Positions 18,266 to 61,005 of a stretch of 64,000 nt of DNA are shown one piece after another. The notes under the pieces are model-generated. The model was not told the origin of the DNA. It was given only the letters and a program-made list of their open reading frames with translations, and made no database searches. Origin of the DNA: Octopus vulgaris (lineage: Eukaryota); contig OX597839.1 in the NCBI GenBank assembly GCA_951406725.2, positions 25,296,001 through 25,360,000 of the forward strand. Direction: 5' to 3'. The position numbers were made by a program, and so were the translations under genes. Each line of letters starts with the position of its first letter. The first letter of the stretch is position 1.

Positions 18266-18359
18266 TAATAATAGGAATAATATTCCTTTAACAATTAATT
18301 CTACACCAAACTGTTTTGTGATGCTTATTTTATTCCTGTTTGTCCTCTTCTAATTTCAG

Positions 18360-18491
18360 AGCAAGTTAATCAAGCTGTTTAGTCAGCAGTTAGTCATTAA
18401 GGCCAAACTGGCTAACGATCAGCGTCTTGCTGAGTTTCCCAAGATTGAGAAATGGCTCAACATTTTTGGTATCAATGAACAAGCAATCTCT
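18360..18491 (+). CDS. ksr: KSR exon A, CC-SAM region: SKLIKLFSQQLVIKAKLANDQRLAEFPKIEKWLNIFGINEQAIS
   Basis: Polypyrimidine tract plus tttcag acceptor, gtaagt donor, phase 0-0, 132 nt. Peptide resembles KSR2 SKLVKYFSRQL...FPQLRHWF as I recall it. Confidence 0.9.
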
Positions 18492-18598
18492 GTAAGTTAG
18501 CCTCTTTATTTTATGTTCTTGTTGTTTGTATGAAAGAAATACACGCAAAAAAAGAAAGAAAAAGAAACAGCTAAAACTACTTGTATTGAAGTGATTAA

Positions 18599-23258: not shown

Positions 23259-23674
23259 TACTCTTTACTCTTTTACTTGTTTCAGTCATTTGACTGCGGC
23301 CATGCTGGAGCACCGCCTTTTGTCGAGCAAATCGACCCTGGGACTTATTCTTTGTAAGCCCAGTATTTATTCTATCGGTCGCTTTTGCTGAACCGCTAAG
23401 TGATGGGGACGTAAACACACCAGCATCGGTTATCAAGCAATGCTAGGGGGACAAACACAGACACACAAACATACACACACACACACGCATATATATATAT
23501 ATACATATATACGACGGGCTTCTTTCAGTTTCCGTCTACCAAATCCACTCACAAGGCATTGGTCGGCCCGGGGCTATAGCAGAAGACACTTGCCCAAGAT
23601 GCCATGCAGTGGGACTGAACCCGGAACCATGTGGTTGGTAAACAAGCTACTTACCACACAGCCACCCCTGCGCC
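23259..23674 (-). mobile_element. SINE family A, about 95 bp upstream of exon B
   Basis: Consensus match. Confidence 0.9.
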
Positions 23675-23767
23675 TATTGTATATCGTTATTGTGTGGCTT
23701 ATGTAATGAATTGTTATTAATTATATTGACTGTTGTTATTGTTGTTGTTGTCTCTGCCCTATTTCAG

Positions 23768-23912
23768 GTGATTGTAAACAAGGGAATCCTACTAACGTCT
23801 CTCTTGAAGATGAATGAAGAGCAAGTCCGGTCTCTCTTTCGTGATAATAATGCTGAAAAGGAAGCGATTCAGGAACTTACGACGGCCTTAAAACATTTAA
23901 ATGCTTGGACAG
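23768..23912 (+). CDS. ksr: KSR exon B, SAM part: VIVNKGILLTSLLKMNEEQVRSLFRDNNAEKEAIQELTTALKHLNAWT
   Basis: tttcag acceptor, gtaagg donor, phase 0-1, in frame with exon A. LLxM.EE.V...L...L..AL..L pattern of the KSR SAM domain. Confidence 0.9.
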
Positions 23913-24006
23913 GTAAGGATTTCTCCATTCACAAAAAACTGTCTTTCATTAACTTTTTTTTTTTTTTCTTTTTTTTTAGCTCAACTTAATTGAACTCTCT
24001 CTCTCT

Positions 24007-26734: not shown

Positions 26735-27371
26735 ACAAGCAGATTAAAGGAGATTCTTGTGATGAAAACGATGTTGAGCTTCATTGGACTCGATACACAC
26801 CGTCTCAGTCCTCCAGTGTTGCTAACAGCAGCAGCGTCATCAGCAGCAGCAACACTGAAGCTGCTGACGGTGAAGGAAATAGTAATGGGGGTGAGGGTAC
26901 TGCGGGAAGTGGTGCCAATGAGGGGGGCAGTGGTAATAGTCGCGGCATCAGCAGCACCAGTACCACTGGAGGAGGAGGAGGAGGCGGCGGGGGGAGTAGT
27001 GGTGGTGGTGGTGGTGGTGGTGGAGGCAGTGGTAGCGGCGGCGGTGGCGGGGTTGATACCGGATCCCCGAAATATATCTCTTGCCCTTCCACGTCGTCTC
27101 TTCCCTCGGAAAGCTTTCAACCGGTCCACATCCCCACGTCCCCGCAGAGCACCCCATCGTCGCCCGTGCCGCGCAACCCAAAAGAAAGACACAGAGGCAC
27201 CCCTCCTCCGACCCCAACATTAGTCAGGGCAAAACCCATGGGCAGCAAATACCCAAGTACACCTCCCCCCAAGAAAAAGATCCAACTATTTCCAGATGCC
27301 TCATCGCTAAAGAAAAGCCGATCCTGTGAATCTCAGCTGGCGAGTCGAGTTACAAACATCGACCCTGTGAG
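26735..27371 (+). CDS. ksr: KSR exon C: Ser/Gly-rich linker, CA2 (GTPPPTP, KYPSTPPPKKK) and KSRSCESQL
   Basis: tttcag acceptor, gtgagt donor, phase 1-2; matches ORF 26719-27375. TPPPTP and SxSxESQL are KSR hallmarks (KSR1 RSKSHESQL 14-3-3 site). Confidence 0.93.
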
Positions 27372-27450: not shown

Positions 27451-28748
27451 GTCACCGAGTAATTTCTGATGAGGTTTTATAAGACTGAAAGTTGTCCAGG
27501 GTTGTTTCCCTTGTTTTGAGTATATTAACAATAACTGGACTGTAGATATTCATACTGGTTGTGTCACCGAGTAATTTCTGATGAGGTTTTATAAGGCTGA
27601 AAGTTGTCCAGGGTTGTTTCCCTTGTTTTGAGTATAATAACAATAACTGGACTGTAGATTTTCATACTGGTTGTGTCACCGAGTAATTTCTGATGAGGTT
27701 TTATAAGGCTGAAAGTTGTCCAGGGTTGTTTCCCTTGTTTTGAGTATATTAACAATAACTGGACTGTAGATATTCATACTGGTTGTGTCACCGAGTAATT
27801 TCTGATGAGGTTTTATAAGGCTGAAAGTTGTCCAGGGTTGTTTCCCTTGTTTTGAGTATATTAACAATAACTGGACTGTAGATTTTCATACTGGTTGTGT
27901 CACTGAGTAATTTCTGATGAGGTTTTATAAGACTGAAAGTTGTCCAGGGTTGTTTCCCTTGTTTTGAGTATATTAACAATAACTGGACTGTAGATTTTCA
28001 TACTGGTTGTGTCACCGAGTAATTTCTGATGAGGTTTTATAAGGCTGAAAGTTGTCCAGGGTTGTTTCCCTTGTTTTGAGTATATTAACAATAACTGGAC
28101 TGTAGATTTTCATACTGGTTGTGTCACCGAGTAATTTCTGATGAGGTTTTATAAGACTGAAAGTTGTCCAGGGTTGTTTCCCTTGTTTTGAGTATATTAA
28201 CAATAACTGGACTGTAGATTTTCATACTGGTTGTGTCACCGAGTAATTTCTGATGAGGTTTTATAAGGCTGAAAGTTGTCCAGGGTTGTTTCCCTTGTTT
28301 TGAGTATATTAACAATAACTGGACTGTAGATTTTCATACTGGTTGTGTCACCGAGTAATTTCTGATGAGGTTTTATAAGGCTGAAAGTTGTCCAGGGTTG
28401 TTTCCCTTGTTTTGAGTATATTAACAATAACTGGACTGTAGATTTTCATACTGGTTGTGTCACCGAGTAATTTCTGATGAGGTTTTATAAGGCTGAAAGT
28501 TGTCCAGGGTTGTTTCCCTTGTTTTGAGTATATTAACAATAACTGGACTGTAGATTTTCATACTGGTTGTGTCACCGAGTAATTTCTGATGAGGTTTTAT
28601 AAGGCTGAAAGTTGTCCAGGGTTGTTTCCCTTGTTTTGAGTATATTAACAATAACTGGACTGTAGATTTTCATACTGGTTGTGTCACCGAGTAATTTCTG
28701 ATGAGGTTTTATAAGACTGAAAGTTGTCCAGGGTTGTTTCCCTTGTTT
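27451..28748. repeat. 112-bp tandem array, 11.6 near-identical units
   Basis: Unit starts at 27451+112n; only a few SNPs. Confidence 0.97.
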
Positions 28749-30695
28749 TTCAAAATAATATAAGGCATTGACTAATGTCATCTTTTCCACCATGCATTAA
28801 TTATTTCTGTTTGGTTTTTTTTTTAGCGCTGAATATATGATAGGTGCAGGCTTGAGGTTAGGAAGTTTGCTTTCCAACGACATGGTTTCGAGTTCAGTCC
28901 CATTGCATGAAACCTTATACAAGTGTTTTCTACCGTAGCCGTTGGCCGACCAAAGCCTTGTGAGTGGAATTGTTTGGCGGAAACTGCAAGAAGTCCACTG
29001 TGGAAAGTAGCTGCAGCAGCTAAAGATCAGAAGTGGATGTTTGGTCTTGAGGGCAAGAGGAGGCGGCATTAGGAAGTTCAATTCTCAACCACATAATTTT
29101 GTGTTAGGTTCCGTCTCACTGTTTCAGACACTTTGGCCAAGTGTCTGTAACTTTAGCCCTAGGTCAGACACAGCTTTGTGCATAGATTTGGTTGAGAGAA
29201 CCTGAAAAAAAGCTCATCATATGTATGCCAGATAACTTGTAAGGTCTCTCATAACTGCTACTGGTAACTTGGACTCCAGTACAACCTGTTGAATGGTCGG
29301 GTCGCTGAAGAGTAAACCAGCACACCCTCTAGGCTTGCCTGGGGAGGAGGATTGCTAAAAACCCAGTAGGATGAAAAACAAGACCAATCGAAAGGAAAGA
29401 TGAACCTAGTGTAGGTTCAATGACTTTCCAGCAACAGCATAAGCCCTCAGAAATTTCAGGTTGGCGTCTGGTGTGTTGGAAAACCACCGGGAGTGAGGCC
29501 CCTCTCAGCTTTTGTTATAGCATGTCTGTAGAATGTCATTCTGATATAAAACTAGAAATGCAGGGAATGGCATGTTGGCACTTGATATCTTGCTCTGGTT
29601 TGTCTATGGATCATATTAATAGAGTGGAGAGGGTCTGTGAGGTGTTGTGCAAGCCTTATTCATCATCATCATCGTTTAACATCCGTTCTCCATGCTGACA
29701 TGGGTTGGACGGTTCGACCGGGGATCGGGAAAGCCAGAAGGCTGCACCAGGCTCCAGTCTGATCTGGCAGTGTTTCTACAGCTGGATGCCCTTCCTAATG
29801 CCAACCACTCCGCGAGTGTAGTGGGCGCTTTTTACGTGCCACCTGCACAGGTGCCAGGGGAGTCTGGCATCGGCCACGATCGGTTGGTGCTTTTAACGTG
29901 CCACCAGCACGGAAGCCAGCCATGGTGGCGCTGGCATCGGCCAGTAATTAATTAGTATATTAGAGATTAATATTTCCCAAAATATAAACTCCTGGTCCCC
30001 ATTCATTCACAGCCAGATTAACCAATGTTACACTGAGTTGAACGTATTAACAAAAAAATAATGATTACACAGTATATTAACTTATCACTTGCAGTGAGTT
30101 GGTAGTCTACTAAAACCAGTCAACCATTTAGTCTCATTCTGATGATGTGGGATGCGTGGTAAGAAATTTGCTTCCCAACCATGATTCCCTGAACTTGCTG
30201 GTCTTCTACCAAGATTTGAAACCATTATTATTGTTGTTCTTGTTGTTATTCAGGTGGTGAGCTAGCAAAATCATTAGCAATGTGGACAAAATGCTTTTAG
30301 CAGCATTTCAATTAAGTTCAAATTTCGCCAAGGTCGACTTTGCCTGTCATCCTTTCAGGATCAATAAAATAAGTACCTGTTGAATACCGAGAGTCAATGT
30401 AAGTGGCTTATCCCCCCTCCCACTCCCGAAATTGCTGGCCTTGTGCCAAAATTTGAAACCAATATTGCTTGAACTATAGTGAGATGGCTGTAAATCTGTG
30501 TTAGTCATGAATAATGATTGACTTCAACAAATGATTGTTTTTACTCAAATAAAAAATGTTTTTTCAGAAAGCATAATAGCCTTCTTGTATTTCCAGAAAA
30601 GCTCATATTTTGGTATTCAAAATTGTATTTAATTAACCTTCTCTTTCTTTCTTTCTTTCTTTCTTTCTTTTTCTTTTTTTTCCTAAAATTTCCAG

Positions 30696-37629: not shown

Positions 37630-38340
37630 ATAATAATAATAATAATAATAATGAAATTATTGTATACAGTGCTCAGGTGCACCACAACTTGTCAGAGTAT
37701 ATGCAGTAATGTAGAAATGTCTGGGAAGTGAACAGTGTATGAGTCAGATACATGCCTGTGTGTGTATGGAGGGGAGAAAATCAGGTGTAGTGTTGGCGAA
37801 TCTCAGGAAGCATGGAAGTTTTGAAGGATGCAGTGCTCCGACAACCAACAACTGATGCCGGCAGTTTGTTCCATGCTTCAGCAACTCTCAGCGTAAAAAA
37901 ATGTTTCCTGAAGTCATGGGAGCTGTGCTGTTTTCTGACTTTGTAAACATGTCCACGGGTGTTAGACAGACGGACTCAGGAAGCATGGAAGTTTTGAAGG
38001 ATGCAGTGCTCCGACAACTAACAACCGATGCCAGCAGTTTGTTCCATGCTTCAGCAACTCTCAGCGTGAAAAAATGTTTCCTTAAGTCATGGGAGCTGTG
38101 CTGTTTTCTGACTTTGTAAACATGTCCACAGGTGTTAGACAGACGGACTCAGGAAGCATGGAAGTTTTGAAGGATGCAGTGCTCTGACAACCAACAACTG
38201 ATGCCGGCAGTTTGTTCCATGCTTCAGCAACTCTCAGCGTGAAAAAATGTTTCCTAAAGTCATGGGAGCTGTGCTGTTTCCTGACTTTGTAAATATGTCC
38301 ACGGGTGTTAGATGGGTGGAGTTTGAAAAGGTACTTCGAA
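37630..38340 (-). mobile_element. CR1/L2-type LINE 3' end with 173-bp triplication, (TTA)n tail
   Basis: TRGH.YK...RKHFFTLRVAEAWNKLP; unit starts at 37802, 37975, 38148. Confidence 0.85.
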
Positions 38341-42436: not shown

Positions 42437-43170
42437 CATGTAAGAGTGTGTATGTATGTATGCGTGCGTGTGTGGTAGCCGTCGTCGTCGTGGTAGTCGT
42501 CGGTTTTTTTTTGTTTTTGTTTGTTTTTTTTTTTTGATGTCATCAGCCACAGATCTCTTCTCACCCTCCCAACCCCCAACCCCCACCACCGTTTTCTCCC
42601 CGCTGCCACCATCACCTTCACCACCACCACCGTCCCCCCCCACCACCACAGATCTCTTCTCACCCTCCCAACCCCCAACCCCCACCACCGTTTTCTCCCC
42701 GCTGCCACCATCACCTTCACCACCACCACCGTCCCCCCCACCACCACAGATCTCTTCTCACCCTCCCAACCCCCAACCCCCACCACCGTTTTCTCCCCGC
42801 TGCCACCATCACCTTCACCACCACCGCCGTCCCCGCCACCACCACAGATCTCTTCTCACCCTCCCAATCCCCAACCCCCACCACCGTTTTCTCCCCGCTG
42901 ACACCATCACCTTCACCACCACCACCGTCCCCCCCCCACCACCACAGATCTCTTCTCACCCTCCCAATCCCCCCACCACCACCGTTTTTCTCCCCGCTGC
43001 CACCATCACCTTCACCTTCACCGCTGCCCTCCTCCCCCCATCACCACCACCCTCCTCCACCCAATGACGTCAAAGCCAAGACACATGACAATCGATTTCA
43101 AAGTGATGGCAGGGTCGCGCGCGCGCGTGCGCGGTGGTGGTTCGTTGTCGGGGTGGGGTGGCGGCGGGTA
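41740..43170. promoter_or_regulatory. GC/CpG-rich intronic island, candidate promoter or enhancer
   Basis: TGACGTCA at 42193-42200 and 43065-43072, CCAAT at 43061, (CG)n at about 43116-43127, many CpGs against an AT-rich background. Confidence 0.35.
42547..43030. repeat. ~99-bp C-rich tandem repeat, 5 units
   Basis: AGATCT at 42551, 42650, 42748, 42846, 42946. Confidence 0.92.
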
Positions 43171-46057: not shown

Positions 46058-46974
46058 ATCTCCATAGCCTCTAAGACAGTGAGCTGGCAGAATTGTTAGC
46101 ACATGAGGCACAAATGCTCATCCTTCTTTACATTCTGGCTTCAAATACTGCCATGGGCCACTTTGCCTTTCATACTTTCGGGGTCAGAGAAGTACCAGCT
46201 GAGCATGGGTTGATGAAATCGGCTTTGCCCCACCCTCCCCCAAACCTGCTGGCCGTGTCCCAAAATTTAGAACCCATCTCCATAGCCTCTAAGGCAGTGA
46301 GCTGGCAGAATTGTTAGCACATGAGGCACAAATGCTCATCCTTCTTTACATTCTGGCTTCAAATACTGCCATGGGCCACTTTGCCTTTCATACTTTCGGG
46401 GTCAGAGAAGTACCAGCTGAGCATGGGTTGATGAAATCGGCTTTGCCCCACCCTCCCCCAAACCTGCTGGCCGTGTCCCAAAATTTAGAACCCATCTCCA
46501 TAGCCTCTAAGGCAGTGAGCTGGCAGAATTGTTAGCACATGAGGCACAAATGCTCATCCTTCTTTACATTCTGGCTTCAAATACTGCCATGGGCCACTTT
46601 GCCTTTCATACTTTCGGGGTCAGAGAAGTACCAGCTGAGCATGGGTTGATGAAATCGGCTTTGCCCCACCCTCCCCCAAACCTGCTGGCCGTGTCCCAAA
46701 ATTTAGAACCCATCTCCATAGCCTCTAAGGCAGTGAGCTGGCAGAATTGTTAGCACATGAGGCACAAATGCTCATCCTTCTTTACATTCTGGCTTCAAAT
46801 ACTGCCATGGGCCACTTTGCCTTTCATACTTTCGGGGTCAGAGAAGTACCAGCTGAGCATGGGTTGATGAAATCGGCTTTGCCCCACCCTCCCCCAAACC
46901 TGCTGGCCGTGTCCCAAAATTTAGAACCCATCTCCATAGCCTCTAAGGCAGGGAGCTGGCAGAATTGTTAGCAC
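46058..46974. repeat. 218-bp tandem array (4.2 units) made from a degenerate SINE family B copy
   Basis: Unit starts at 46058, 46276, 46494, 46712, 46930; contains GAGCTGGCAGAATTGTTAGCAC. Confidence 0.95.
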
Positions 46975-48523
46975 AATGAACAAAAACTCTTACAGGCATT
47001 TTGTCCATCTTTATGTTCTGAGTTCAAATTCTGCCAAGGTTGACTTTGCCTTTCATCCTTTTGGGTCATCCCATAAATAATGCAGTTTTTTTATACTTCT
47101 TTTATTTTTCAAAATTAAGATAAACAAAGTTCTTTTTTAATCTAAAATATACTCTCCTTCATTTTCTACAATGCATGACATTTGTATCTGCCATGACTGC
47201 GATTTTGCTTGGCTTGATGGGTCTTCTCAAGCATAACATAATGCCGAAGGTCTTGGTCATTTCTCCCGTGAGGCCCAATGCTCAAAAGGAACTCAGCCAC
47301 CTCACCTCTGAACATACACACATAACAAGCTTCTTTCAGTTTCTGTCTACCAAATCCACTCACAAAGGCTTCAGTCTGCCTGAGGCTATGGTAGAAGAAA
47401 CTAGTTCAAGGTGCCATGCAGTGGGACTGAACCCGGCACCATGTGGTTGGGAAGCAAGCTTCTTACCACACAACCATGCCTGCCCTATGTATTTTTTCAG
47501 TCAGTGAAGGTGAATCTTTAGTCCTGCAAGTTTTCAAGTGACCCCACAGGTGCTGGTGCCATGAAATATGTGCCCAGTGCACTCTCTAAAGTGGTTGGCA
47601 TTAGGAAGGGCATCCAGCTGTAGAAAGCATTCAAAACATTGCAGCACAGTGAAGTTCTCTGACTCATTGGGTCCCTTCGCACTGTGCAACTTGCGTAATA
47701 TAGAAGACTGACATTGGATGATGATGATGATGATGATGATGATTTAAAACATCAGCTGTTGTGTGTTTAATTTTGAGCTTAAAATAGGTTTATGTAAAAA
47801 AATATCAACAAACTTTGTTGTTGTGTTTTTTCTTTTCTTTTTTTTTTGTTATTTTCTTCCTTTCGCTGTCTTATTGAAAAAAAAAAAGAAAAAGAAAATT
47901 GAAAAAGCTATCTTGCCTGTAATAAAGTTTAGTGCATCATGCTTACATATGTCCATATCTCTAAGGTCATTTTGATTTGCTGGGCCATTGAAATAACTGT
48001 TTCATGTTTGCTGTGTAACATATGGTCAAAGTACACACGTGCCCTCCACTCTCTCTCTCTCTCACACACACTCTTACTCTCTGTATTTCATACTTTTGCT
48101 CTCTCTCTCACTCTTCTGATACTTATCCCAAATCTATAATACAATATCTATTACCATTCGTTTTCCCAATTTCAAATTAACAGTGACAACTGAATACTTA
48201 ACAATAAATATTTCAATACATAAAACACTTCAAACCCCTTCTTGTGGTCCTTGTTACCAAACTGCAGTTAGACCTTGTGTTTATTCACTTGTAAAAAGAT
48301 TAGAATCTGTGGATCCCCCCCCCACCCATCACTACCACTACCAATCCTATTTTCCATTTCTCTTACTCTCCAATGTTAAATCTGTCCAGGGTCGTCACTG
48401 GCTCTGCATTTCATCCCAGCAGTGATCAATAAAGTTAGGACCAATAAACTACAAACGTCCAGTCAACTGATTGGTTCCTGCGCAAATTATGGTTTTGTAC
48501 CTAGCCCCTAAAGAACTAGTGTT

Positions 48524-59292: not shown

Positions 59293-59923
59293 ACATGTTA
59301 AACTATGTTAAGTGTTAAAGAAAGAAATCTTGCTGGTTTAGCAAAACATTTTCATAGGGGCCTTAAAATACCACCATGGCTCCCCCAGTTTACTATTTTC
59401 CTTGCATGGGCCACCTTGGTTAAGAACTGCTGACCTACGTAAGACTTTGTCACTAGTTTCTCCTCTCGGTAGATGTGATTTTGAAATGTAATATTAAAAG
59501 CTAACCAAAAACTCAGGGATTACAGTTCAGACAACATCGTTAGAATAATTTGTTTGTTTAAATATTTCACCTTTGACCTTCTCCCTCCACCCCGCCCCGC
59601 CCCCCAATTGTCTTCGACGGTTTTTCATTTTGCAATCATAATTTGTTGTTGTTGTTGTTGTTGTTATATTTGTCTTGTGGTTTTCTCTATGGCGTGTTCT
59701 GTATCAGAAATCAGTTCGTTGTTGTCTGTCTGTTTGTTGTTGTAATTTCATGGCAGAAAACTTTTAAAAAAAAAAACAAAAAAAAAAAGAAGGAAAGAAA
59801 GAAACCTGAAACCAATTTGTTGTTGTTTTTGTTTTTTGATCTGGGTTTAATGCCATTCTTTTGTTTCCTGACCCCTAATGTCAAGTAATGTTTCCTCACT
59901 CCTCTGTATATCTATTTTTCTAG

Positions 59924-60136
59924 GTTCTCCCAAAAACACTCGGCGAAGCATTATAAAGCTGGTGAAGTCTGTTCCTACACTCCAACGCCAGGATTCAGGC
60001 TCCAACACATCGTCTTGTAACTCATCCACCCCATCTTCTCCTGCTCTCCCCATCACTTCCCCTGCCAGCATCACTTCTCCCTCTCCGGCTGCCTCCCCGA
60101 AGGTTGTGCCCTTACCATCTCAGTTTCCGTTCCCAG
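59924..60136 (+). CDS. ksr: KSR exon H, CA4 region: ...QDSGSNTSSCNSSTPSSPA...SQFPFP (FxFP ERK docking motif)
   Basis: ttctag acceptor, CAG|gtgagg donor, phase 1-1. DSxSNxSSxxSSTPSSPA and FxFP are KSR CA4 hallmarks. Confidence 0.9.
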
Positions 60137-61005
60137 GTGAGGACCATTATCCCGTGTCTTGCTCAACACCTACTGAACCTGCTTTCTTTGATGTTTTTTG
60201 TAGTCAGTCTGCTTATCCGTTAAACATGAATGCTAACCACCCTGCTAACCATCTAAGTGGTAAGGCCCTGCCAAATCTGAGTGCCGTCAACAAACCCTCA
60301 AGACATGGCTCCTTCCATCACTTTGGTCGGGCCTCACCGTCCTCATCACCAGTTTGCAGCACAAAGAAATCTAATTTTCACAATGTTCATTTTAAACGTG
60401 TTCCTCTTGAAAGCATCCCGTTACCATCGAGATGTGCTTGTCAGCATGTGTACGAACATGAACGAAAGCTTGGCCTCTATACGTACCCCTGTTTGAACCT
60501 AGGTTCCGCTGAATGTGTGCATTGTAGATCTATTTCGACTTTATGTTTTCCATGCTTTTCCACATCCTCTGACAAACCATGCAAACACAAGGACCACAAG
60601 GACTTCCATGCCAGCCAAGGTTTGCGTAATTGTGCCGACAAGTTGTTGCTCTCCGACCAATCTCACTCAGGTCAGTTAAAGAAAAGAGTGACGGGCATTC
60701 CGGCTGTGGCCCCGGCCGCATTGTCGCATCTCCTGCAGACTAAAGGCCCCATGCAGTCGCCTCTGGTAGCCATGTCCAAACTTCTGCCATCGTTGTCATC
60801 ATCGTCGTCATCGGAATATTCTGGTGTCAATGAACAGGTACCACATTGGCAATACACCAACTCAGGTAATCAGTTGACTCTACAACACATGCTAAGGGTG
60901 CAATTTGGTTGGCATGACGGCCGGTTCAAATTTAACTTGGCAGTTTTTAAATTTTTCTTTTCGACTTTTTTTCTTTCCTCTCGCTCTTTTGCAAATGTGG
61001 GTTAA
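60137..61005 (+). CDS. Possible alternative in-frame extension of exon H (alternative donors after 60670 or 60865, or terminal exon to TAA at 61003-61005)
   Basis: Stop-free for 289 codons past the donor in non-repetitive sequence. Two downstream CAG|GT donors are in the same phase (1) as 60136. Confidence 0.55.

Follow-up and report, generated by a model that had tools for sequence, protein, structure and literature searches.

The minimal type I hammerhead ribozymes of metazoan Penelope-like elements, as far as the available text of Cervera and de la Pena (2014, PMC4209133) describes them, consist of a core with a hairpin helix II and a short helix I, carry palindromic positions 15.2-16.2, act only as dimers and weakly even then, and occur mostly as single dispersed relics. 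The family that we take to be the parent of the core described here is built in the same way, with the same palindromic positions and with copies that are mostly single, dispersed and heterogeneous, whereas the copy in the array has kept neither the palindrome nor helix I nor the G10.1-C11.1 pair, and in its 5-bp helix II no base bulges out behind position 9. Metazoan non-LTR retrozymes, in the available parts of PMC7229834 and bioRxiv 10.64898/2026.07.22.740005, resemble the array in their short head-to-tail repeats, low GC content (37% here) and single core per unit, and differ from it in that the array has no complete hammerhead per unit and occupies one locus instead of forming a dispersed family; nowhere in it do two or more neighbouring units each hold a complete type I hammerhead. 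Its monomer folds like shuffled sequence, unlike the self-paired circles described in the accessible part of PMC7229834.

Two further systems are close. The cryptic mutant hammerheads in repeats reported by Perreault et al. (2011, PMC3088659, as far as its available text goes) share with the array intact core letters, mispairs adjoining the core and a position inside a repeat, the difference being that the relic here appears to have been amplified again as a minisatellite. The hammerheads that amniotes have domesticated in their introns, the RECK ribozyme among them, likewise lie on the sense strand of a host gene, but in what is available of PMC6155905 and PMC3088659 they are single, conserved and active, in contrast to the tandem and decayed cores of the array. 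Taken as a whole, the array is most probably a single-locus 112-bp minisatellite holding a mutated copy of an old minimal type I hammerhead, a likely Penelope-like leftover that is predicted to be dead and was likely amplified in place.

The array and its host intron

The array was located in the window, by which we mean the whole 64-kb stretch of Octopus vulgaris DNA that was analysed, and its features are collected in Table 1. TRF gave a period of 112 with 11.6 copies and 98% matches, and twelve CTGATGA...GAAA cores start at 27466+112n, in agreement with the earlier note, which had counted twelve cores in a 112-bp array. Core, helix II and GAAA are contiguous in the units. The assignment of an A variant to units 1, 5, 7 and 12 and of a G variant to the remaining 8 units, made in the same note, was reproduced exactly. 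This A (A34) therefore occurs in 4 units including both array ends; among the other differences, an A98 variant was found in 2 units (1 and 3), and private changes once each in units 2 and 5.

Table 1. Positions in the window of the array, its parts and the neighbouring exon
Feature	Position	Strand	Remarks
KSR-like host exon (Gly/Ser tract, proline-rich region)	26735..27371	+	donor 27372; KSR SAM pieces upstream
Tandem array, 11.6 x 112 bp	27451..28749	+	structure A(BA)11, A = 67 bp, B = 45 bp
Core and helix II, unit 1	27466..27490	+	every 112 bp, last 28698-28722; from sequence and family match
Decayed helix III palindrome and GUC	27490..27496	+	AGTTGT vs family ACATGT; GUC 27494-27496
Family-derived 3' sequence including former helix I 3' arm	27497..27517	+	matrix score 8.2 bits
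60-bp spacer (B and first 15 bp of next unit)	27518..27577	+	replaces helix I 5' arm of family; GUA 27542-27544
Last core and right flank, likely the original single family copy	28698..28850	+	runs on into native family 3' sequence

The contigs over the array in three other DNA runs had about 3.6 times (X2), 8 times (X5) and 12 times (X6) the depth of the flanks, ratios that indicate raised depth and not an exact copy number, while run X1, in which a contig over the array was absent, was uninformative. The array is real, and an assembly artefact is contradicted by the depth in X2, X5 and X6. The window holds 11 other tandem arrays with units of at least 60 bp (14 rows minus the present array and two overlapping rows), demonstrating that local amplification is common in this region. 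These other long-unit arrays include 242-913, 37802-38312, 42547-43016 and 46058-46975, and one of the eleven has a 218-bp unit in 4.2 copies at 99% identity. A description of the present array was not found in the literature listings searched; the alignments in the supplement of PMC4209133 and the tables of bioRxiv 10.64898/2026.07.22.740005 could list the family.

With regard to the host gene, the splice donor GTGAGT directly follows the exon and the array begins 79 bp into the intron, so that its placement about 80 bp past the KSR-like exon holds. A scan of 300 of the 314 candidate ORFs against Pfam gave two matches in upstream pieces on the + strand, to SAM_KSR1_N (18354-18497, E 0.0016) and SAM_KSR1 (23642-23986, E 0.0017), both of them below the curated Pfam cut-offs. 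In the exon itself a long Gly/Ser low-complexity tract precedes a proline-rich motif, which we take to resemble that of KSR. An open frame of 377 codons at 59872-61002 on the + strand had no Pfam match; it probably holds another exon of the KSR-like host gene, because its Ser/Thr-rich start presumably resembles a later region of KSR.

A dispersed hammerhead family and its probable Penelope-like relatives

The 2.8-Gb genome was searched at the DNA level, and the resulting counts are lower bounds. The 25-base core gave 51 matches at up to 2 mismatches, 39 of them outside the array (0 for the reversed control), and the sequence adjoining these matches pointed to CATGTC after GAAA; the pattern including CATGTC was found at no fewer than 105 places, again with 0 for the control. 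From these, 45 distinct family loci were analysed (48 were taken and 3 duplicates dropped), while the loci L057-L085, which matched a neighbouring repeat and not the core, served as controls and were not counted as family members. Along with the core and a 5-bp helix II, the family has a helix III made by the palindrome ACATGT, a GUC triplet and a helix I that is short, the layout of minimal type I hammerheads. For 18 loci helix III had played no part in the selection; of these, 10 keep C15.2, 12 have U16.1 in register and 4 carry the exact palindrome. At least 4 of the 5 helix I positions are paired in 14 of the 45 loci, compared with 7.9% for random arms; covariation in helix I among the family copies was not detected (p 0.155), and contiguous helix I pairs number 0 in 19 of the 45 copies as well, so that the ancestral helix I is a consensus inference.

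Identity within the family averages 42% outside the search pattern, and the longest pairwise alignments are 68-77% identical; judged by sequence, the family is an old and dispersed one. For the array unit, the 14 positions 3' of the pattern scored 8.2 bits against the family, a score reached by 0.03% of window positions, while the 5' side scored -7.5 bits against the family matrix and is not homologous. By these comparisons the array core classes as a family member and not as a chance motif. The dispersed relatives that the earlier note had suggested looking for are thus present, and some have intact helices, but they are old, stand singly and lack the spacer. Neither for the window nor for the array did Rfam report a hammerhead. 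In a few family loci a second copy lies nearby, inverted at L048 and L054 and direct at L098 (354 bp apart) and L112, arrangements of the kind reported for Penelope insertions.

Of 30 GIY-YIG loci, 18 carry a minimal hammerhead whose palindrome is likewise ACATGT, 0.7-1.3 kb downstream of the endonuclease start, with a core of the U3-A8 variant. The earlier note was right in so far as the motif in the array is a true hammerhead descendant of the Penelope-type minimal kind, and an attenuated one. No reverse transcriptase or GIY-YIG ORF was matched in the window, and among the 45 family loci (1.5 kb on each side) there was one endonuclease match, at L106. This match was considered as an ORF link between the family and Penelope and was rejected: the remnant belongs to another element, trailed by its own decayed hammerhead and other repeats. 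Since no family copy was found tied to a Penelope ORF of its own within this 1.5 kb, a Penelope origin of the array's hammerhead family is argued by analogy of design and is considered likely.

Several observations were made along the way on these loci. A young Penelope-like family (L120-L145) has many intact 781-aa GIY-YIG ORFs, and its 3' repeat holds a U3-A8 minimal hammerhead with an ACATGT palindrome; at L122 the hammerhead lies about 1270 bases downstream of the endonuclease start, and at L134, near the end of the locus and on the strand opposite to its endonuclease, a further U3-A8 minimal hammerhead has a perfect 5-bp helix I together with the ACATGT palindrome. At L106, positions ~230-860 on the core strand, the GIY-YIG remnant is followed by a decayed hammerhead-like motif of a different family, and a genome search with the L106 DNA returned only another common repeat.

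Predicted loss of activity in the array's copy and probable origin of the repeat

The core CUGANGA...GAAA with a hairpin helix II is present in 12 of 12 units. Helix II can pair in both variants, as had been claimed, with 5 pairs, of which 2 (A variant) or 3 (G variant) are G-U, including the closing pair 10.1-11.1. The cleavage triplet and helix III had been called non-canonical, which is incorrect for the triplet, a GUC being present with A15.1-U16.1 in register, and correct for helix III, where position 15.2 and the palindrome are broken, as is helix I. The remaining AGTTGT makes 2 of 6 dimer pairs, with a duplex energy of +3.2 kcal/mol vs -4.6 kcal/mol in intact family copies. Helix I has 0 contiguous pairs adjoining the core because its 5' arm was replaced, and 1.1-2.1 is C-U. 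In the available text of PMC3088659 a 1.1-2.1 mispair is a criterion for rejection, most such candidates being called cryptic mutants in repeats, and weak helices III are described there as common in natural hammerheads. The wobble-rich helix I proposed by the earlier note does not stand up, as it needs CCA at the cleavage site, has no A15.1-U16.1 pair and gives a duplex energy of 0.0 kcal/mol.

When 54 NUH sites within one unit on either side were considered, the best register had 4 + 2 contiguous pairs; among 1000 shuffled units, 746 reached 3 or more + 2; in this model, no cleavage register gives helices I and III better than the shuffled controls. For a 3-unit RNA, the predicted probability of helix II was at most 0.06 and that of an unpaired GAAA about 0.05. 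The monomer fold had z values of 0.03 and 0.60 against 200 shuffles, that is, it folds like shuffled sequence and is not highly self-paired. GTCCAG and CTGGAC, which had been noted as pairing within the unit, do pair in the predicted fold, though spacer and core are no more complementary than expected by chance (p 0.23-0.54). The energy penalty for adopting the hammerhead fold was 11-13 kcal/mol for the unit, and 6.3-17.5 kcal/mol for the 5 of the genome's 6 Rfam hits that were scored, one of them possibly with the wrong GAAA; the two overlap, and the penalty was therefore dropped as a test of activity. No likeness was found between the unit and the 6 Rfam RF00163 loci of the genome. As an observation on the latter, L157, L158 and L161 (1500-1608) are related 108-nt RF00163 matches in which helix II is branched and very long and helix III is palindromic. 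On these models the array's copy of the hammerhead is predicted to be catalytically dead. The evidence favours a dead relic, which the earlier note had put forward as its own refuting case.

As for the repeat itself, the genome search, a lower bound, found neither the whole unit nor the spacer outside the array. The right flank after unit 12 aligns to the 3' sequence of L106 with a score of 64, which 0 of 200 shuffles reached (one of 12 tests), and to 30 of the 45 family loci it gives a closer fit than the sequence with which the unit itself continues. Since the right flank is native family sequence, the old copy probably occupied the site first, with the repeat then growing at its 5' end. Repeated duplication accounts for the shared variants, and for the family-type A kept by the two end units, better than a single pass around a circle would. 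With the unit found only here, the right flank, the shared variants and the 11 other arrays, the data point to amplification in place as DNA and not to a mobile retrozyme. No target-site duplication was found at the array, no TA tract at its ends and no inverted arm.

The spacer is the part that simple duplication does not account for, being absent from both flanks (12 and 13 of 45 positions match), and no source for it was found within 10 kb on each side or in the family. Two candidate derivations were tried and rejected: an inverted copy of part of the core, which was not above chance, and an inverted or direct piece of the family flanks (best p 0.05 among 12 tests). The left flank was tried as native family 5' sequence and this, too, was rejected (p 0.13). 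The proposed course of events is that a family hammerhead copy would have inserted in the KSR-like intron long ago and then decayed, that the 60-bp spacer would have taken the place of its 5' arm, that spacer and core may have been duplicated repeatedly via slippage or unequal exchange, and that the pre-mRNA would now traverse the array uncut.

Competing explanations and what the array means

Two of the alternatives keep the ribozyme alive. An active and unusually short non-LTR retrozyme, in which the tandem cores would cleave in dimeric form and free circles of 112 nt from the intron of KSR, could draw on the tandem cores on the sense strand of the gene, the full set of intact core letters and the retained GUC. 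Units of 51-972 bp have moreover been called retrozymes computationally (bioRxiv 10.64898/2026.07.22.740005, in its available part), a range that includes 112 bp, so that among such calls this unit is not unusually short. With the dimer helix III and the core-adjoining helix I broken as given above, self-pairing of the monomer equal to that of shuffles, a single locus and no likeness to the six RF00163 loci, we regard such activity as very unlikely; the related proposal of a retrozyme or pLTR unit placed to cut or be released is not supported, given the same single locus and registers that do not beat the shuffles. A hammerhead rebuilt by the spacer, in which GTCCAG/CTGGAC would make a long helix III, cleavage would be at a GUA and helix I would be bulged, of type I within the unit or type III across units, is the best-scoring constrained fold (GUA at +77, or at -35), spans the whole unit and allows three core-adjoining pairs (G-U, A-U, G-U). 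It is nevertheless a highly improbable structure: helix III has just 1 contiguous pair and helix I has 2, folds as good arise in 17% of 150 shuffles, spacer and core resemble each other in inverted form no more than chance predicts, and the preferred fold buries GAAA. The corresponding biological proposal, that a dead Penelope hammerhead was turned by a new spacer into a GUA-cutting monomeric ribozyme whose 112-nt unit cuts the KSR pre-mRNA or yields tiny intronic circles, is held to have equally slender prospects.

The remaining alternatives concern how the array came about. It might have been written in one event by a Penelope reverse transcriptase circling a 112-nt RNA circle, or from a small DNA circle, for which present-day cleavage is not needed. 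The structure A(BA)11 with a spacer in neither flank, the 98% likeness of the units and the existence of intact 781-aa GIY-YIG ORFs in the genome are in keeping with such copying, and since the spacer has no source in the flanks, within 10 kb or in the family, it keeps low odds. The right flank, which continues old family sequence, the variants that are common to several units and not private, and the lack of a second locus, TA tract, target-site duplication or inverted arm all tell against it, and we consider it improbable. A chance origin of the core, or an assembly artefact behind the array, is extremely unlikely: Rfam scores nothing here and run X1 had no contig over the array, as either would have it, but the family matches with a control of 0, the homology outside the search pattern and the raised depth in X2, X5 and X6 contradict it.

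The preferred reading, a relic amplified in place, makes the array one more remnant of a transposon that has ended up in a local tandem repeat; the genome is rich in both, and as it stands the array matters little. Were cleavage demonstrated, the array would offer a rare example of a ribozyme re-formed from a relic within a signalling gene. The array also calls for caution in that retrozyme calls made from a tandem repeat and a hammerhead core can count passive minisatellites; dispersed whole units, the continuity of the flanks and the helix III palindrome are the checks that separate retrozymes from such minisatellites.
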